IMG/VR virus record: IMGVR_UViG_3300030110_004856
Span: 1-64,000 of that record
DNA length: 64,000 nt
Direction: 5' to 3' (one strand)
Source: a virus
How positions within the stretch are numbered: the stretch's first letter is position 1; every line of letters starts with the position of its first letter. This document shows, in pieces, positions 4,195 through 37,924 of the stretch. The notes beneath the pieces were generated by a model. It ran no database searches and was not told the origin of the DNA. It saw nothing but the letters and a program-made list of their open reading frames with translations. The position numbers and the translations under genes were made by a program.

Positions 4195-4731
4195 ATGACT
4201 ACTTCAAACCTTGAGGAAATTCTTCAGGCTGTAGCGGCTCCCACGGAGGAGGTTGTCACTGAAGAAGTTGTCATCGTAAAGGAAGCAAGCATCGACAACT
4301 TTATTTTTAAGCTTGTCGAGTTTGCTTCCTACAACTACCAGCTCAATATTCAAGCGCACATGCTGCACTTGAATCTGGAATCACCAAACTTTTTGGCACT
4401 GCATAGGTTTCTGAGGAAACAGTACCATCAGCACCTTGAAGATTTTGACACCATCGCTGAGCTTGTGCGCTCCATGGACTACCTCATGCCTATGTGTGGC
4501 AAAGGTCTCCTAGGTGCATGCAAAGATTTCAAACATGTAAAGAGCTATGACGCCACGGAGAGTTTGGTTCGATATACCAAAAATCTAGAGAACGGTGGCT
4601 ACATGGCTAAAGACTTGTACGTCATGGCCAGAGAATGTGAGTGCCCTGATGGAGAAAACGAAATCTCTCAGATCGTCAATCACATGTTCAAGTCCGCGTG
4701 GAAGATGAAATCGACTCTAAGAACCAATTAG
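4195..4731 (+). CDS. dps: Dps/ferritin-like protein
   Basis: H-x11-H-x14-D-x3-E ferroxidase signature (HLNLESPNFLALH...DTIAE); C-terminal 'KSAWKM'. Confidence 0.85.
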   Translation: MTTSNLEEILQAVAAPTEEVVTEEVVIVKEASIDNFIFKLVEFASYNYQLNIQAHMLHLNLESPNFLALHRFLRKQYHQHLEDFDTIAELVRSMDYLMPMCGKGLLGACKDFKHVKSYDATESLVRYTKNLENGGYMAKDLYVMARECECPDGENEISQIVNHMFKSAWKMKSTLRTN

Positions 4732-11135: not shown

Positions 11136-11411
11136 TTAATCTAAACCATGAAAATCGGCACCCCAAGAAGTGTGTGCTTCACTTCCAACTCCTTCGAGAA
11201 ACTCTTTTCGCTTTTCCCAAGTGTCTCCTCCTTCTTTACCTTTCATAGCATTAATACACATACTACTTTGCGCAACGTTACACACAAGACCAGCTAAATC
11301 AAGCTCGTTACCTCGATTTCCAGTAGCCCAGTAGTGAACTCCGTTAAGCCATAAAGCACCGCATTTAGGACACTCCTTACGATTGATGCTGAGCTGTGAA
11401 GTGTCTGTCAC
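11136..11411 (-). CDS. small Zn-binding hypothetical protein
   Basis: CPKC...C...C, GGDTWEKR. Confidence 0.7.
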   Translation of the reverse strand: MTDTSQLSINRKECPKCGALWLNGVHYWATGNRGNELDLAGLVCNVAQSSMCINAMKGKEGGDTWEKRKEFLEGVGSEAHTSWGADFHGLD

Positions 11412-11460
11412 GATACTAACGGTACAGATAATATATATATTCTACTCAGTTTGTGTAGAC

Positions 11461-11488
11461 AAAAAAAAGACCCCTCCGAAGAGGGGTC
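11461..11488 (-). terminator. rho-independent terminator after capsid operon
   Basis: GACCCCTC-TTCG-GAGGGGTC-T8 on minus strand. Confidence 0.95.
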
Positions 11489-11510
11489 GTCCGTGTTCCA
11501 GCTAATCTTA

Positions 11511-12389
11511 TCAGCTGGGGGACGTAGACGTGTAAACAGAAGATTCTGTAAGACCGTCGGGCTGAAGAGCCACATCCTGACGCTCCGGGGGAGAGTCGGG
11601 GAGGATCCAGCAGACTTCGCAGATTGCGAGAGCCTTTTCGTCGCCAGACAAGAAGTTGTTGGCGGCGCGAGGATCGTAGACACCAGAACCTGCAACCACG
11701 GGGGAGGCATTGGTTGTTGCGAAGAGCTTCCACTGAGTTTCCGCAGTAGTAGCTTCCAGCTGACTGGAGTCGATGATGTTGGTGGAAGCAACCGACCCAT
11801 TAGGGATGCGGCGGTCAGCACCAATGGCAGAGACTGCAAAACCACCCGATACAACAGTGTTGTCAGTCGGATAGCCTTCGCCCACGGCGGGAGCCAGGGA
11901 CAAAGTAGGTGCAGTTTCTGAGCCAGGGATGCCAGAGCTGACCACGTCTCCTCCGGTGATCCGCAGAGAAGCGCGGTAGCAGTAGACGCCTGAAGGCACC
12001 TGAATACCGTCAGCAATATCCTGACGAACGTCCTTATGGAAGTCCGGTGAAGGAATGATGACGGCAGCGTCACTAAAAGCAACGTTGGATTTGCCGTTGG
12101 GGGAGCTGTTAACACCAGAGCCATAGGCTTGGGTGTAGTACTCCAGCTGGTTAACGGAACCCAGAGCCTGGTAGCTCAGGTCAACGTAACCAATTGCTTG
12201 TTGAGCAATCCAACCGGGACGGAAGATGACGCCGACAGGACCACCAACAGGCTGGTTGGTGTAGCTCGTAGAAACGCCATTGGCGTTCTCGAACTGCATG
12301 GTTTTTTCTTCGTGCCAGTAACGAAGAACGTTCGCGTAGTTGCCAGGATAAATCTTGGCGACTGAGATCTGGTTCGGATTAATTGCCAT
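11511..12389 (-). CDS. putative minor capsid/decoration protein
   Basis: directly after major capsid gene, before strong terminator; beta-rich. Confidence 0.6.
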   Translation of the reverse strand: MAINPNQISVAKIYPGNYANVLRYWHEEKTMQFENANGVSTSYTNQPVGGPVGVIFRPGWIAQQAIGYVDLSYQALGSVNQLEYYTQAYGSGVNSSPNGKSNVAFSDAAVIIPSPDFHKDVRQDIADGIQVPSGVYCYRASLRITGGDVVSSGIPGSETAPTLSLAPAVGEGYPTDNTVVSGGFAVSAIGADRRIPNGSVASTNIIDSSQLEATTAETQWKLFATTNASPVVAGSGVYDPRAANNFLSGDEKALAICEVCWILPDSPPERQDVALQPDGLTESSVYTSTSPS

Positions 12390-14870: not shown

Positions 14871-15242
14871 ATGAACTACCTCGCCGAGAAAGCTCTCGAT
14901 GTCTTGACAGATGACCCGGAACAATTTATGGCTGCGATGTCAGGGTCGATCACAGATTCTATTTTGCACCCAAAAAAACTAATACCGTGTTTGCTAAAAA
15001 CAGCGGTAGTTGGTTTCTTCTTGGCTGAGTTCGTTAGTCCTGCTATTGCAGAAAGATTAGAACTCAGTCCCAAAGAAGCTGTAGCCCTTTCATTCATCTG
15101 CGGATATGCAGGAATAAGAGGACTAAGGATTGCAGAAGATATGGTGTTGAAAAAGGTTCAACCGATGGGAGGGGCAAGCGAGATGTCCACGCCTTCGTCA
15201 AAACCGTCAGAAGAAGCACCTTCTACAACTTCTGCTGACTGA
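14871..15242 (+). CDS. putative holin/membrane protein
   Basis: 2-3 hydrophobic helices, 'ALSFICGYAG' holin-like motif. Confidence 0.6.
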   Translation: MNYLAEKALDVLTDDPEQFMAAMSGSITDSILHPKKLIPCLLKTAVVGFFLAEFVSPAIAERLELSPKEAVALSFICGYAGIRGLRIAEDMVLKKVQPMGGASEMSTPSSKPSEEAPSTTSAD

Positions 15243-25077: not shown

Positions 25078-25811
25078 GCAAATCTGCTGGTTCCTGCTAG
25101 TGCCAGGTTAACTCCTTGACGACGCAGTGCCATCTGTCGTTTACCTTCAGCTTGGATTCGTGCGAGTGAGCCTAAATCCCTGACTTCCTGTAGTTTGATG
25201 TCGTTGTTTAGCTGCTGAGATTTAAGAGCCATATTCCCTTTCGCGTCAGCTCGGGTGTCAAAAACATCACCGATAGTATATGCCTGATCAAGGGCAGCGT
25301 TAAGCTTGCCCATTTCTTCATTCTTCCTCAAACCAATATTCGTTTCAGCTGCTTCCTTATACAGGTCCATTTCATTAGCTAGGGCTGCACTGCCTGCTTC
25401 GTACTCAAACTTTGGCTTGAGTTTTTCAACTTGCAAACGTGCATCAGCAGTATCTCCCAGAAGCTGGATGCCACGCTGTGTCAAACCTCCAGCTTCTTGT
25501 CCCAGCAGACCCGTGGCACTCTGCGACCGATTAGCAGCTTCAGCCAACTGTGTGAGCTGACCGCTGCTAATCAGATTGCCTCGTTGCCCTAAAGCTCCGC
25601 TATAGGCACCGGTCAAGGAAGCTAAACCTTGTGCAGCAGCAGTTAGAGGAGCATTAGCAGCCGCTGCAGCAGAAGCATATTGCTGCAAATAGAGTGCAGT
25701 ATTTGGGTCCATTCCCCCAGAACTCCCACCGGAGGATCTACTTCCACCGCCAAAAAGACTGCCGACAAGAGGAGCAGCAACGGATAATGCGGGACCGAGC
25801 CAAGCAGCCAT
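25074..25811 (-). CDS. putative ejection/DNA pilot protein
   Basis: N-terminal 'WLGPALSVAAPLVGSLFGGG' then Ala/Gln-rich coiled coil. Confidence 0.6.
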   Translation of the reverse strand: MAAWLGPALSVAAPLVGSLFGGGSRSSGGSSGGMDPNTALYLQQYASAAAAANAPLTAAAQGLASLTGAYSGALGQRGNLISSGQLTQLAEAANRSQSATGLLGQEAGGLTQRGIQLLGDTADARLQVEKLKPKFEYEAGSAALANEMDLYKEAAETNIGLRKNEEMGKLNAALDQAYTIGDVFDTRADAKGNMALKSQQLNNDIKLQEVRDLGSLARIQAEGKRQMALRRQGVNLALAGTSRFA

Positions 25812-30736: not shown

Positions 30737-31459
30737 GTGACAAGCAAGTTCAAAGAGCTGATGGCACAGCTGAATGACGAAGAAGTGGCTGTCCCAGCCC
30801 CTACTGGGTCTCCTTTAACTAAGCAAGTGACTCTCAAAGACAAAAAGAAGCTTAGTGATCGCTATAACTTCAATCAAGGGTGGTATGACGCTCTGTTGAA
30901 CACAGATGCAGTACTAAATGAGGCTCCAGAGGGTGAAATCTTCCGTTTGGACCCAAAAGAGAAGCGTCAGATCGTCGAAATTGGCGTTTACGAAGGTGCA
31001 TCAACCTGTTTTTGGTCTGATTTCTACCTTGATCACCCAGAATCAAGGTTGATCTCCATTGATCCGTTCACTGGAAGCATCGAACACCACGAAAACCCTG
31101 AAAATTACCCTGAACTAGGCTGTATTGAGTACACAGCACGGGGAAATGTCGCCAAATCTGATAACGCTGCGAAAGTCGAAATCATCAAAGGCTTTTCCTG
31201 GTTCGTATTTCAGGAACTGGTACTCAGGAACGAAACGGACAGATGGATTGATGTCCTATACATCGATGGAGCACATGACTCTGCCTCTGTTTCGCGTGAT
31301 GTTGCTCTTTACTGTCCTATGGTTAAGCCTGGTGGCGTAGTGATCTTTGACGATTACGCACATCCAGATGTACAACGTGCTGTGGACATGACACTCAATG
31401 CATTTGCTACAGCTCAAAAAGCTATGTTTACCGGTTGGCAACTAGCAGTAAAGTTCTAG
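30737..31459 (+). CDS. Methyltransf_24-family SAM methyltransferase
   Basis: VEIGVYEGAS, SIDP, YIDGAH, VKPGGVVIFDDY. Confidence 0.92.
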   Translation: MTSKFKELMAQLNDEEVAVPAPTGSPLTKQVTLKDKKKLSDRYNFNQGWYDALLNTDAVLNEAPEGEIFRLDPKEKRQIVEIGVYEGASTCFWSDFYLDHPESRLISIDPFTGSIEHHENPENYPELGCIEYTARGNVAKSDNAAKVEIIKGFSWFVFQELVLRNETDRWIDVLYIDGAHDSASVSRDVALYCPMVKPGGVVIFDDYAHPDVQRAVDMTLNAFATAQKAMFTGWQLAVKF

Positions 31460-31467
31460 TCTCAAGT

Positions 31468-31623
31468 GTGATCATTTATGATCATCAGCCTCGGAACTCG
31501 CGCTCCCCACAGTTCTAACAGCTTGCGGTAGTCACGGGCGTCGTTTCCCTCAATGACCCCACCCTCCTTCCATTACTACGACGGTTTACGTCATGGCCTC
31601 GTTTTTTACCACGGGGCTTTTTT
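31468..31623 (+). ncRNA. candidate structured sRNA/3'UTR ending in intrinsic terminator
   Basis: consecutive hairpins with G-U pairs; terminator GGCCTCGT/ACGGGGCT-T6 at 31595-31623. Confidence 0.4.
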
Positions 31624-31810
31624 ATGCACACAAAAAACTTCTCTCAAACCTTCTGGTTCTTGACAATAACGTCGCGCTTTATAAACCATATACAAAGCTC
31701 TATGCACATTACGCATTCTCTAAGTTGTCCGGTCCCCACCTAAACCGCAGCCCTCAACTCACACAACGCATACAACACTTACACTACTTAGTGCACACAA
31801 CCCACATACA

Positions 31811-31888
31811 TCATCCAATGACTCCTTGCGCATGCATCCACCAATACCAGACAGCACCAAAACCCACGGTGAAGTAAACCAAATCCAT
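31811..31888 (-). CDS. 25-aa hydrophobic peptide (not in ORF track)
   Basis: MDLVYFTVGFGAVWYWWMHAQGVIG, follows 31910..32497. Confidence 0.4.
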   Translation of the reverse strand: MDLVYFTVGFGAVWYWWMHAQGVIG

Positions 31889-31909
31889 CAGATCACTATA
31901 TGCTCGGAA

Positions 31910-32497
31910 TCAGACTCTCCTCAAAACAGGAGGCACCTGTCTCATCCCACCAGCTAGTACTGGTTGTGCCGAACCGGGAACTGGAACTGAGTACTCAAAG
32001 TAACTACCATCGGGCTGAGTTACAGGACCACCTGGGTTGCGTGGGTCTCTCAGAGTATCGGGACGATCGAACGGTCTTGTGTAGTCATCATAAAATTTAG
32101 GTGCATACTGATCTCCTCCATAACCACGCTGGTCATAAGGAGTCAGTCCTTCAATCTCGTTACCTTGGTATCTTCTCTCTTGCTTTCTGTAAGGCAAGTT
32201 GTTCAAAAACTCACCCAAGTTAAAAGCAATACCACCTTGTGGTGAAAGCATAAAGTCCTTCTTGCCGTCCTCAATAAAAGTAGGCCGACCGTCATCTCCA
32301 TAGATTCTTCTGAAATTAGGATCTTGCTCCTGTGGATACTGAATGTCACTTGGCTGGACTTCTATAGCTGGCTCCATTTCCTGAATGTACTGCTGCAAAA
32401 ACTCAAGAGCCTGGGCCTCCTCATCGATACCAGGAATGAACACACCACCCTCAACCATCGATGGAGAGAATCCCATAGGGGCCATACCGTAGCTCAT
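31910..32497 (-). CDS. low-complexity hypothetical protein
   Basis: 195 aa Pro/Gly/Gln-rich. Confidence 0.7.
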   Translation of the reverse strand: MSYGMAPMGFSPSMVEGGVFIPGIDEEAQALEFLQQYIQEMEPAIEVQPSDIQYPQEQDPNFRRIYGDDGRPTFIEDGKKDFMLSPQGGIAFNLGEFLNNLPYRKQERRYQGNEIEGLTPYDQRGYGGDQYAPKFYDDYTRPFDRPDTLRDPRNPGGPVTQPDGSYFEYSVPVPGSAQPVLAGGMRQVPPVLRRV

Positions 32498-34153: not shown

Positions 34154-34969
34154 CTAAATTACACTTTTACCGCCTTGAAAAGCCTCTGCAGCTTGTTGAG
34201 CAGCTTTGTCTAGAGCCAATCTAGTCCTTTGTTCTTCAGTTTGATCCTCTCGGAGCGCTCCAAGTACTTGATTTAAGCTTCGTTGCAAGTCTTGTACCTC
34301 TTTACTGTTTATTTCTTGCTTACGAAGTAGTAAAGCGTTTTTTACGTCTTCCACAGAGGAAGGCTCCAGCTGAAGTTTTATAAATTTGTCAAGTTCTCTT
34401 TCCTCAGCAGAACGATAGTCATCGAACGGACCCATCTTGCCTACAGGCTTATCAAACCCGCTCCTATTTATGGGCATTCCATCTGAAGAAACCCTAGGAT
34501 CTGGAGCAATCCCTTGTGGCTGACTAGCTACCTGTGTCGACGTAGCTTGCACAAACTGTCCAGGATCAGTATGGAACAACTCGATCTCATACGGGCGACC
34601 TTGAGCATCGGTAATCTTGGCCACGCCAACGCCATTTTGTGAGTAGTACTCAGTGGCACCCTGTATAAACAGGGGAGTTCCCATAGGGATCGCGTAATCC
34701 TGTCCCTTGTGGAAAGTAGAAGCTCCAGGAACTGGTGCCTGCCTAGGACCAAACCCCGAAGTCATGGGGTACGAAGTAATTGGTCGTCTGTTATCTCCTT
34801 CTCCAGCAAAGATACGACCTAGTAAGTCAGGGCGCGTGGCAGGGTCAATGTGCTGACCACGATTATCCCCAGACATAGGGATAATCCTGAAGTCTCCGTG
34901 AGCACCTGTGGACGCAAAGGGATCTCTTGCAGGATCGATAACTTTTCCAGCCCGCAAGAAATCAGTCAC
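34154..34969 (-). CDS. circularly permuted M23 peptidase with C-terminal helical domain
   Basis: TSGFGPR..P..GASTFHKGQDY..GTP (HxxxD); STGAHGDF...IDP lies N-terminal to it. Confidence 0.8.
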   Translation of the reverse strand: MTDFLRAGKVIDPARDPFASTGAHGDFRIIPMSGDNRGQHIDPATRPDLLGRIFAGEGDNRRPITSYPMTSGFGPRQAPVPGASTFHKGQDYAIPMGTPLFIQGATEYYSQNGVGVAKITDAQGRPYEIELFHTDPGQFVQATSTQVASQPQGIAPDPRVSSDGMPINRSGFDKPVGKMGPFDDYRSAEERELDKFIKLQLEPSSVEDVKNALLLRKQEINSKEVQDLQRSLNQVLGALREDQTEEQRTRLALDKAAQQAAEAFQGGKSVI

Positions 34970-35116
34970 TTGAGCCCACGCGCCTTTTAGTCCCTTAAGT
35001 CTAAGCCAGAAATTTTTCTAGGATCGTGTTACCATATTGCTATTCCAACCTTTGAGGGTCGATTTACCTGGAAGATTCTGACCATGTTCTCGCCGCCGTC
35101 GTGGGTCAGTCTAAAT

Positions 35117-35270
35117 AATTAAAAAAAAGGGGCAGGTTGCGGGAGCCCAGAAAGTTATACATTGCGCCCTACTATATATTATTATATATAATTAATCACT
35201 ATGTATTACTAACACACAAGGATTGCTATGTATTATTAACACATAGGGGGTGTACTTTCTTTTTTTAATT
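35117..35270. repeat. AT-rich iteron-like direct repeats within inverted repeat (origin or packaging site candidate)
   Basis: CTATRTATTAYTA at 35172, 35199, 35226 (27-bp period); flanks AATT-A8-G / C-T7-AATT. Confidence 0.65.
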
Positions 35271-35531
35271 GTTCCTATCACGTACCGCACTAAGTAACAC
35301 TAACTTTATGTGTAGTTAGTAACACTTAGACCGTGTAATATCTCGAGGTTAGGTATACCTATCACATGTTAAGTTTTGTTACAATAACATTTATCCTGCT
35401 CATTATATGATACTGCGTAACATCAACCGCATAGTCTTTAAGGTCCGTACCATTAATCACCGTGGTTGTCAAGCAATACAATCAGTTCCATCACTGGCAC
35501 AATTGCGGTATCTCTAGCATCCCTTAGCGAT

Positions 35532-35564
35532 TACATTATGGGGGCGGAGCGAACCACGCTTCCG
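35532..35564 (+). promoter_or_regulatory. possible early promoter -10 box followed by 5' hairpin
   Basis: TACATT (35532-37), then CGGAGCG/CGCTTCCG hairpin; layout like the promoter at 42102; no clear -35. Confidence 0.4.
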
Positions 35565-35615
35565 ACACCACTACAAAGGAGACAGAACAACCGACCAGCC
35601 AACAGACAAACCACG

Positions 35616-36160
35616 CGATCCGAAACGATCGAACCGAGCCAGAACCGTGAACCCTAAGGGTTGAGTCCGGTGTCTCTCGCTAGCTTTCGTTTCCTGAATG
35701 AGACTCGTGTGAGATTGTGACACCCCCAGTGCGTTGTAGCCAGAGGGAGACGAGAGAGAATCCGTCCCCCGTGCAGATGTCCGGTGCGAGTTAATAACTC
35801 TGAACCACCCTGACTAATCTGCATCACCGCGTAAGGCCCTTGCTATCTGTCCCGTTTGTCTACGTAAGTCATGCACGCCGGGGTAATCAGCGAACCGGTC
35901 CCATGAAACTGCGGAAGCTAATCGGTTCCCTTCCTATCCCGCAGGCTTAGTGTGCCCAGTGTGCTCTATGCCTGGTTCACCTTTCGGTCCGTTCATAACC
36001 TCACAAGGTTGTATCGGTCGCACGTAGAGACTAGCGAGTCAACTGTTAGTTTTTGCACCATTTTGGTCGTGATCATTCATGATCATGGCATGATTCCACC
36101 TTGCAGGGCAGTTATGAGCTGCCTTGCCTGATGGATTCTCTCCATCAATTGCCAACTAAT
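35616..36160 (+). ncRNA. candidate large structured non-coding RNA
   Basis: no credible ORF; more than 12 helices including long-range 35676-83/36031-38 and 35859-65/36022-28; G-U pairs favour the + strand. Confidence 0.6.
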
Positions 36161-36173
36161 TTAGGAGTCTTTT

Positions 36174-36494
36174 ATGACCATCCGATTCATTCAACATCAG
36201 TTCGATCTCCCAGCAGACTGGGCAAGCTATTTATTCAACGGTGACGCAACATCGTTCGATCTTTATGAAGATGGAGACGAGCAGATTGCGGGCATTGACA
36301 AGTTCATTGCAGATACAGGATTAGGTGATCCAAGTGAAGTCAGCCAAGAAACATTCTTCTTGAAGTATCACGATGCTCAGAACTATGGTGTTCTTCCTTG
36401 TACTTGTGCAACTTACACGTTTCTTGAGCAGGTTGATGATCTACAGCCTGATCCTTCTTTAAGTGCAGCGGAACGCAATCCGTCCATGCGTTGA
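36174..36494 (+). CDS. early hypothetical protein
   Basis: AGGAG SD; LPADWASYLFNGD motif seen in phage early genes. Confidence 0.8.
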   Translation: MTIRFIQHQFDLPADWASYLFNGDATSFDLYEDGDEQIAGIDKFIADTGLGDPSEVSQETFFLKYHDAQNYGVLPCTCATYTFLEQVDDLQPDPSLSAAERNPSMR

Positions 36495-36538
36495 TACAAA
36501 CTGCACAAACTATTTAACACAACAACAGGATTCTGATC

Positions 36539-36847
36539 ATGTCTTTTGATTCCCACGCGCTGACTGAACTTGAACTCATTGCAGAGAATGACTGCGGCGA
36601 ACGTGTTAACACCGTTTACAAAGTACTGAGCAAGAAGCACAAACAAGGTATCTACGATATGGAACGCGCCATAGGCTACATAGAGCGCCAGTTAGTATTA
36701 CCTGCTGCCAAAACTTATCTAATGGAGAACTGTTCAATGACTCAAGGACTGCGCAATACATTCCCTAAGTCCATGAGATTGCAAGTTGCTGAGAACATTG
36801 AGGCTAAGCAACGCGCTGAATTTAATCTAGGTAACTATTGGGAATGA
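36539..36847 (+). CDS. early hypothetical protein
   Basis: ELELIAEND motif; CA-rich leader. Confidence 0.75.
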   Translation: MSFDSHALTELELIAENDCGERVNTVYKVLSKKHKQGIYDMERAIGYIERQLVLPAAKTYLMENCSMTQGLRNTFPKSMRLQVAENIEAKQRAEFNLGNYWE

Positions 36848-37177: not shown

Positions 37178-37924
37178 ATGCAAACTCCTTCGATCGATCA
37201 GATTAAGCAGAAGATTGCCAAGCTTCTGCGACTCGCTACATCAACCAATGCAAACGAAGCAGCGAACGCTGCTGATATGGTGCACAAACTATGTGCAGAG
37301 CATGGTTTAACGCAGGACGCTATTGATCCTGACTGTGATAATCCTGACAACAAGGCAATAAACTGGGAAACTTTATACCAAGGCAATCGCAGAAACTTCG
37401 CTGAGATTAACTTGCTCACCGCAGTTGTTGAGCACTTTAACGGTGATCTATTGCTCTCTTGGAGTACTGAAAAGCAAGCCAATTGCTGTGAGATATTTGC
37501 ATCACAAGGCAGGAAAATTGAGATCGAACTGTATTTTGAATATCTGCTAGAGACTATGAAGAAAGCCAGCAAGAGAGCGAAGCTTGAGAGTGATCCTTAC
37601 AAATTAGATAGAGGCTATGAACGAAACTTTCAGAAAGCCTATGCTCAATCAGTTTGGAGTCGTATCAGACGGATGAAACGAGAGAAACAAGAACTAGCAA
37701 GGAGAACACAACACGAGCCTGCATTAGTTGCTGTCTCTCGTGGTAATAAGGAGCAAGCAAACAACACTGCATTAATGCATAAGTTAAATCCACGTATCAG
37801 CAAAGGTACTAGTCAAGCTAGAGCCCATGGCTCAGGTGCAATGTCTGGCAGAGATGCAGGCAGTTCAGTCTCACTCTCTAGACAGATGAACAATTCAAGC
37901 ATGCGAGCACTACCTGGCTCTTAA
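37178..37924 (+). CDS. DUF2786-domain protein
   Basis: KIAKLLRLATSTNANEAANAADM...L..EHGL. Confidence 0.85.
   Translation: MQTPSIDQIKQKIAKLLRLATSTNANEAANAADMVHKLCAEHGLTQDAIDPDCDNPDNKAINWETLYQGNRRNFAEINLLTAVVEHFNGDLLLSWSTEKQANCCEIFASQGRKIEIELYFEYLLETMKKASKRAKLESDPYKLDRGYERNFQKAYAQSVWSRIRRMKREKQELARRTQHEPALVAVSRGNKEQANNTALMHKLNPRISKGTSQARAHGSGAMSGRDAGSSVSLSRQMNNSSMRALPGS

Follow-up and report, generated by a model that had tools for sequence, protein, structure and literature searches.

What kind of element heads the early arm of a phage genome when several hundred bases there encode no protein? The question is raised by positions 35616-36160 of a 64-kb window, the whole stretch of DNA that was analysed, which is the first part of an 81,584-bp IMG/VR virus record (IMGVR_UViG_3300030110_004856, here G000). 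The original prediction took these positions for a single structured RNA of about 550 nucleotides (nt), held together by long-range closing stems and containing a pseudoknot. Here, we describe why only some 230 nt are supported as a folded element, namely 35941-36173, which comprises the 3' multibranch domain of that prediction together with the three hairpins before it. Our best explanation, to which we give about an even chance, is that this segment is a cis-acting, plus-strand folded 5' leader of the early operon lying behind a swappable cassette, where its transcription is something that we infer.

The stretch is located in a 1.2-kb gap between two divergent genes (34154-34969 on the minus strand and 36174-36494 on the plus strand), and it is free of open reading frames (ORFs), as had been predicted, in that no ATG-start ORF of 30 aa or more lies inside it; a 59-aa frame starting at GTG (35952-36131) contains a stop in L002, the relative closest to the window. 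Protein-anchored searches collected 147 loci, and gap DNA is common to few of them, namely L002, the pair L012 and L007 (98% alike), and L008, L003 and L009, while DNA pattern scans of viral contigs with three conserved strings returned only contigs already known. By comparison with these relatives the gap splits into four blocks: A and B (34970-35522), conserved at 79-91%; C (about 35523-35940), which finds no match outside the window's own record; and D (35941-36173), which is 88% identical in L002 and shrunk to an island of about 40-68 nt in the L012 and L008 types. Four sequence types can be told apart in total, represented by the window, L002, L012 and L008.

When folded and compared with shuffled sequences, the whole stretch is more stable than expected on the plus strand (z -3.92, matched by 0/100 shuffles) and less markedly so on the minus strand (z -1.74, 4/100), a pattern that is similar in L002 (z -4.44 and -1.40 on the two strands) and L012 (-2.65 and -1.14). 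This part of the prediction holds; what does not hold is that the stability is spread over 545 nt. Segment D on its own reaches z -5.00 on the plus strand, with 0/200 shuffles as good, against -2.21 (6/200) on the minus strand, and its equivalent in L012 (500-692) gives -3.87 (1/200) and -0.60 (51/200). The type-specific segment before it is unremarkable on the plus strand in three sequence types, the values being z -0.78 (23/100) for 35523-35940 of the window, -0.94 (16/100) for L002 163-560 and -0.84 (20/100) for L012 163-500. As removing the 3' part removes the signal, the excess stability is confined to D. Among 200-nt segments taken across 33.4-38.5 kb only 35900-36299 stands out, again on the plus strand (z -3.2 to -4.3), and block B shows no special folding. 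In a scan of the entire record, using 401 windows on two strands with 20 shuffles each, 36001-36200 on the plus strand is the fifth most stable of the 802 window-strands, whereas the scan windows at 35401-35801 (z -0.5 to -1.0) lie around the genome mean of -0.6. Segment D is exceptional in this genome, but it is not unique.

The computed structure of D is a chain of plus-strand hairpins. Three of them, H-a (35942-35974), H-b (35985-36020) and the 13-bp H-c (36024-36056), are identical in the minimum free energy (MFE) and centroid structures; they are followed by H-d (36066-36089), which carries a twin TGATCA motif and is preceded by a conserved TTGCAC (36053-36058), and by a last domain (36092-36169) in which GATTCC (36092-36097) pairs with GGAGTC (36164-36169), covering the Shine-Dalgarno (SD) sequence and enclosing two small hairpins, H-e (36103-36127) and H-f (36129-36147). 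For this last domain the MFE and centroid structures coincide, the structure accounts for 31% of the ensemble, and the plus strand of 36090-36173 has z -3.95 (1/200). G-U pairs make up 14 of the 72 pairs in D. The helix strings of the original prediction were accurately placed, all seven of the pairs checked lying exactly where it had put them, and its claim of a 3' multibranch domain ending at the SD of the first early gene stands as far as a folded, non-coding plus-strand element is indeed found there; the TTAGTT/AACTAA helix that was to close it is absent from the computed structure. The segment ends at the SD (36163-36167) and the ATG (36174) of the gene, on the same strand.

The layout of this chain is kept where the sequence is not. 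In all four types three consecutive hairpins stand between an island containing CCTATC and one containing TTGCAY, and this interval (35925-36060 in the window) is stable on the plus strand throughout, with z -2.54 in the window, -4.27 in L002, -2.85 in L012 and -5.18 in L008; the corresponding minus-strand values are +0.38, +0.11, -0.53 and -3.48, so that strand-specific stability is repeated in diverged homologues with the exception of the L008 interval. The first island, CCCTTCCTATCC, marks the border between C and D at 35928-35939 on the plus strand and has two more copies at 35274 and 35358, and its CCTATC(A/C)C string is kept at the same relative place in L002, L012, L007 and L008.

Conservation and covariation point to the same part of the stretch. 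Between the window and L002, 36021-36173 is 93-100% identical and 36101-36140 is 100% identical, while the gene behind it (36174-36494) has 85.8% nucleotide identity, below that of the leader. Changes fall in 10 of 144 paired columns as opposed to 19 of 89 unpaired ones (leading gap excluded); five of the ten changed pairs stay paired, all by one-sided changes, and three C-to-U changes opposite G preserve pairing on the plus strand only. Between L012 and L008 the third hairpin has four compensatory pairs. Over the whole leader of L012, L007 and L008, RNAalifold counts nine compensatory pairs against 4.35+-1.56 in 40 column shuffles, and a control in which the partners were slid gives ten against 0-2, a comparison biased in its favour by a structure predicted on the same alignment.

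Splitting this alignment, which holds three sequences from two lineages, into cassette and leader is decisive for locating the covariation. On the plus strand the leader part has a consensus energy of -50.8 against -28.0+-3.9 (0/100 column shuffles as low), four compensatory pairs against 0.95+-0.8 (0/100 reach it) and two broken pairs where 4.6 are expected; on the minus strand the energy is -34.1 against -30.6+-4.4 (20/100) and the pairs number 2 against 0.96+-0.95 (21/100). The cassette part gives an energy of -62.7 against -55.1+-4.7 (5/100) and five pairs against 2.9+-1.6 (17/100) on the plus strand, and its minus strand behaves alike (-76.0 against -71.5+-5.1, 16/100; six pairs against 3.4+-1.5, 7/100). 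Covariation among relatives, which had been proposed as the check on the large RNA, is therefore significant on the plus strand of the leader part and not significant in the cassette part, and compensatory base changes in the leader are found on a sample as small as three sequences in two lineages. A covariance model of the L012-type leader also matches the window at 35924-36097 (E 5.8e-4) and L002 (E 7.7e-5); we do not count this as structure shared across types, since the match rests mainly on the two conserved islands and is not hairpin-for-hairpin. RNAalifold over five clades downstream of TGATCA gave a positive, that is unfavourable, covariation term on a poor alignment. What leads up to the ribosome-binding site of the first early gene is a chain of hairpins that is conserved, covaries and is specific to the plus strand.

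The remaining two-thirds of the stretch is of a different nature. Segment C, at 35523-35940 on the plus strand, is a type-specific non-coding cassette with unrelated sequence of similar length in the relatives: it has no BLAST match in the 147 loci except the window's own, at least three of its types are mutually unalignable (the L012 and L008 versions are 79% alike), and yet the spacer from the end of block B to the D island is kept at 423-504 nt in all types. Its GC content is 54-58% against 47% for the genome. A T-poor linker had been noted at its start and is confirmed by 6% T in 35541-35660; over the first 115 nt or so, the four types have 6, 8, 15 and 12% T, compared with 26% in the window. 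This A/C-rich tract opens all four unalignable types, and ACAGAC-like strings recur in it. The cassette is non-coding, the indels between L012 and L008 measuring 1, 2 and 8 nt, which are not multiples of three, and we rejected a gene or decayed gene since tblastx of 35500-35960 against all loci found nothing below E 0.83 and the frame in D is not conserved.

How the cassette travels can be seen in Logan contigs of four runs from four studies (2014-2025), compared over 34700-36700. No variant letter is listed for 35492-36148, whereas the flanks hold 29 variant positions; in one run (X5) the contig departs from the window sequence at 35505 for a different cassette, and in another run contigs break at 35944-35968. 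Differing flanks are found next to one and the same cassette, and a sample that contains this cassette can also contain a different one (X7 records 17/18; X5). From the breaks and departures around an interior for which no variant letter is listed it follows that the cassette exists as discrete alleles joined to varying flanks, and this accounts for the many contigs of the group that stop a few hundred bases short of the gene. In sister clades the position is occupied by small ORFs or by different, unrelated sequence, for which reason we regard the head of the early arm as a general exchange hotspot in this phage group; L069 and L071, for example, have genes that are 97% identical behind about 1 kb that is mostly unrelated. 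The interval 35523-35940 is, accordingly, a strain-type-specific non-coding spacer that is not specially folded and is exchanged as a block.

These observations bear directly on whether 35616-36160 is one stand-alone RNA of about 550 nt acting as a decoy, sponge, scaffold or ribozyme, which we now consider very improbable. The idea can draw on the strand-asymmetric stability of the whole stretch in three types, on the nine compensatory pairs over the entire L012-type alignment, on a GC content of 55% against 47% for the window, and on a cassette for which no variant letter is listed in the four studies. Against it, the stability signal is gone once the 3' 230 nt are removed, the part in front showing no excess stability in three sequence types, no significant covariation, and wholesale replacement between close relatives. 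Nor is there stability beyond shuffles along the whole length, or a set of conserved covarying helices that includes the closing stems: for both long-range stems the 3' arms are kept in L002 and no 5' partner exists in its variable part, even when wobble pairs are allowed. That the stretch seemed almost fully accounted for by helices is near chance for this composition, as it contains four perfect complementary 8-mers against 1.79+-1.74 in shuffles (45/300 reach four) and 16 perfect complementary 7-mers against 8.1+-3.6 (15/300 reach 16). A terminator scan finds none inside, and the stretch runs straight into an SD and start codon; a cis-acting leader is the better fit. The prediction was right that no Rfam family is recognizable, with no match at gathering score anywhere in the window (Rfam 15); at E<=10, 34900-36300 yields two chance-level matches only, both on the minus strand, to SNORD99 (19.7 bits, cutoff 60) and DapZ (18 bits, cutoff 56).

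A variant of this idea would keep cassette and leader as one early RNA of about 680 nt whose strain-specific 5' part functions as an RNA-level specificity determinant, for example a decoy for host defence or a superinfection or immunity RNA. It is suggested by a cassette for which no variant letter is listed within the window's type over 11 years and four studies, and which is unalignable between types and always U-poor and A/C-rich at its opening. This part would work without a thermodynamically marked fold; we think the idea improbable.

If D is a leader, where would its transcript start? Upstream of the cassette lies block B (35361-35522, plus strand), a conserved non-coding block that is 79-91% identical in L002, L012 and L003 and that holds two sigma-70-like promoter candidates, ATAACA-16-TATGAT at 35384-35411, found by a promoter scanner, and TTAATC-18-TACAAT at 35453-35482, recognized by eye and not flagged by the scanner, the -10 of the latter being TACAAT or TATAAT in all four types. 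Both candidates point into the stretch. Host RNA polymerase would start at one or both of them and read through the cassette, after which the leader would fold and affect the early mRNA in cis, by protecting its 5' part or guiding the processing of that part, and by controlling how ribosomes reach the first gene. The most constrained site, the twin TGATCA hairpin, probably binds a protein, either as RNA or, equally possibly, as duplex DNA in the manner of an operator. The weakest link in this proposed mechanism is the SD-covering helix.

The base homologous to 35361 is also where L002 and L012, contigs from different metagenomes, both begin; it lies just after a 12-bp palindrome, TAGGTATACCTA, inside a CCTATCAC motif. 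A physical genome end, a mosaic junction or an artefact of the assembler could each account for the shared start. A genome end, direct terminal repeat or pac site at this base was dropped, given that L003 reads through it and contig depths show no consistent doubling, and nothing similar to the region is present at the far end of G001, a relative of 78 kb. Further upstream, 35117-35330 is an AT-rich tract with repeats spaced by 27 bp (CTATGTATTAYTAACAC) and TAACAC units inside imperfect inverted repeats, highly conserved in L003; being iteron-like, it may be an origin or a promoter cluster.

The twin motif of H-d, TGATCA-N4-TGATCA, with hexamers at 36070-36075 and 36080-36085, is identical but for one loop base in L002, L007, L008, L009 and L012, and in three loci that are more distant, L069, L071 and L096, it precedes the first plus-strand ORF; the flanking pairs that extend the stem are kept in three of six versions, judged by eye. 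There are two copies in the 81.6-kb genome and one each in G001 and G002, and S-EIVl, a Synechococcus phage, has no exact copy, only a site with one mismatch. The second copy (31469-31484, plus strand) is separated by 9 nt from the stop of the Methyltransf_24 gene in front of it (30737-31459) and precedes a plus-strand terminator (31595-31618). It belongs to a second non-coding stretch, 31460-31910, with an A/C-rich tract at 31690-31900 (11% G) and an unremarkable fold (z -0.8 to -1.2), where a 94-aa ORF (31593-31877) that overlaps the terminator is unlikely to be a gene. An invariant palindrome with a near-invariant loop fits a protein site on duplex DNA at least as well as an RNA hairpin, and the two readings of H-d are compatible.

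Several more specific identities for the motif were set aside. A methylation switch was rejected on the grounds that the gene beside the second copy is Methyltransf_24/TylF-like and not Dam-type, without a relative in the PDB; GATC is not depleted in the genome (387 sites against 315 expected). Sites for sigma-54, CRP, Fur, the Bacteroidetes -7 box and boxA/nut, sought by eye, were dropped for wrong spacing or half-sites. A resemblance of the hexamers to the P1 pac site is not supported, two being far fewer than in P1.

Might the locus then work as DNA? A DNA-level control region would consist of palindromic protein sites, of a promoter-operator formed by TTGCAC and the twin TGATCA, or of single-stranded DNA structure used in replication or packaging, and its conserved blocks would be the recombination points for cassette exchange. 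We regard this as possible and on balance doubtful. The invariance of the twin motif and its loop across types, its recurrence in three distant relatives and once more in the genome, the stability of D under DNA energy parameters and of 36090-36173 on the minus strand, the exchange of cassettes between flanks, the shared contig start at 35361 and the adjoining iteron-like tract are all consistent with it. What speaks against it is that stability is strand-asymmetric for D as a whole and for the three-hairpin interval in three of the four types, that the 14 G-U pairs would be C-A on the other strand, that compensatory changes are significant on the plus strand only, and that two copies of the motif make no dispersed repeat family. 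The other alternative, which we think unlikely, is that the gap has no function beyond spacing and is intergenic DNA, decaying and evolving fast, in which promoter, operator and SD sequences incidentally make the 3' part stable. The small ORFs or unrelated sequence of sister clades and the other equally stable segments of the genome would suit this explanation; a leader more conserved than the coding sequence behind it, strand-specific covariation, and a hairpin layout kept across unalignable types would not.

The cis-acting leader is the reading that we prefer, and a number of observations weigh against it. Some concern the fold: D is also stable with DNA energy parameters (z -4.05), the last domain (36090-36173) is nearly as stable on the minus strand (z -3.31), the L008 three-hairpin interval is stable on that strand too, and scores at least as low are reached by four further window-strands of the genome. 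Others concern the comparisons, in that the window and L002 show no two-sided compensatory change and five of their ten changed pairs are broken, and that there are four sequence types only, with effectively two lineages carrying the covariation count. The SD-covering helix is weakened by the loss of one pair in L002, and in the L012 type, where an SD is lacking, nothing corresponds to it. As regards H-d, its stem never varies and therefore offers no evidence on RNA pairing, its nearly invariant loop fits a DNA site better, and the second twin copy stands behind a gene and not before one. Around it TTGCAC-19-CATGAT/TATGAT can be read, with a long spacing, a -10 that is absent in L069 and L071, and no flag from the scanner; were TTGCAC...CATGAT inside D a promoter, as it could be, H-a to H-d would be left outside the mRNA. 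Lastly, the transcription of the leader is itself something that we infer: a search of sequencing runs listed no RNA run containing 35300-36500, and three metatranscriptome runs from samples that contain the stretch had next to none of its words, a result without bearing on expression.

Comparison with known systems helps to place such a leader. In coliphage T7 the early region opens with the host-type promoters A1-A3, followed by the RNase III hairpin R0.3 before gene 0.3, and the present locus is similar in that its early arm likewise begins with a non-coding stretch of several hundred bases, in which promoter candidates of host type are followed by hairpins directly in front of a small first gene. 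The two are related neither in sequence nor through Rfam and belong to unrelated phage lineages, the spacer here differs between strains to the point of being unalignable, and RNase III cutting is here hypothetical. Lambdoid nut and HK022 put leader RNAs are cis-acting elements in early operon leaders, as the candidate here would be; a closer likeness is not supported, a boxA-like CGCT(C/T)(T/C)C being found in three of four types by eye only, the hairpin after it in L012 being deleted in L008, and no N/Q-type gene having been identified. Rfam also contains large, phage-associated 'ornate' RNAs, namely GOLLD, ROOL, HEARO and OLE. The flagged stretch resembles them in being ORF-free, GC-richer than its surroundings and in a phage; unlike them, two-thirds of its length is without excess stability or significant covariation, and it has no Rfam match to them. 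The claim of a 550-nt ornate RNA is removed as unsupported. Finally, PeSL motifs of T4-type phages combine a promoter and a stem-loop, flank segments that differ between relatives and are proposed as exchange points (PMC4122927). Here, block B and the TTGCAC/TGATCA block likewise flank a swapped cassette, and the flanked segments do differ between close relatives (the window, L002 and L012; L069 and L071). In contrast to PeSLs, which are many per genome and flank ORFs, the twin motif has two copies in 81,584 bases, not many dispersed near indels, the swapped segment is non-coding, and a sigma-70 promoter inside the motif is at most a candidate.

The genome around the locus is that of an uncultured marine phage of about 81.5 kb. 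The ends of the record (G000 1-104 and 81481-81584) repeat each other over 104 nt at 99% identity, and because of this overlap the 'linear' record is read as a circle that was assembled and then cut open at an arbitrary position. The minus arm, on the left of the stretch, carries portal-like, large terminase and major head genes, and the plus arm, on its right, carries dCTP deaminase, DNA polymerase A and primase. The large terminase is nearest to that of Synechococcus phage S-EIVl (51.7% identity across 95% of its length). Close relatives are lacking among cultured phages, the DNA polymerase being at most 28.5% identical to any, and BLASTN against cultured phages gave no match. The first plus-strand gene (36174-36494) encodes 106 aa, its relatives carry DUF6926, and its homologues P0002-P0012 share 44-87% protein identity. 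Members of the same small protein family occur in two Synechococcus phages, S-N03 and P60, as well as in Rhodobacter phages, and the match is no more than about 1.5 kb away from a record end in P60 and in the majority of the Rhodobacter phage records listed; for S-EIVl no homologue is listed.

Elsewhere in the record, 37200-37399 on the minus strand, antisense to the gene at 37178-37924, has z -3.7 and -4.1 in two scans, the sense strand not being unusual, and G000 4201-4400 and 11401-11600 on the plus strand and 15001-15200 and 25401-25600 on the minus strand reach z -5.1 to -5.9. At G000 69750-72822 two minus-strand genes of about 615 aa (69519-71366 and 71401-73242) share internally repetitive DNA at 65-78% identity and, from their sequences, look like tandem paralogues with repeat arrays.

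What remains at the head of the early arm is an unclassified structured element of about 230 nt with a narrow known distribution of four sequence types, in front of which a swappable non-coding cassette shows modular exchange at regulatory blocks and accounts for the tendency of assemblies of these phages to break at this place. The stretch itself is present in sequencing runs of seven studies. If the leader is real, it would be a cis-regulatory RNA, uncatalogued in Rfam, with a place at the very beginning of infection by a widespread lineage of uncultured marine phages, and its twin TGATCA hairpin and SD-covering helix would then provide a handle on how such phages time their first gene.

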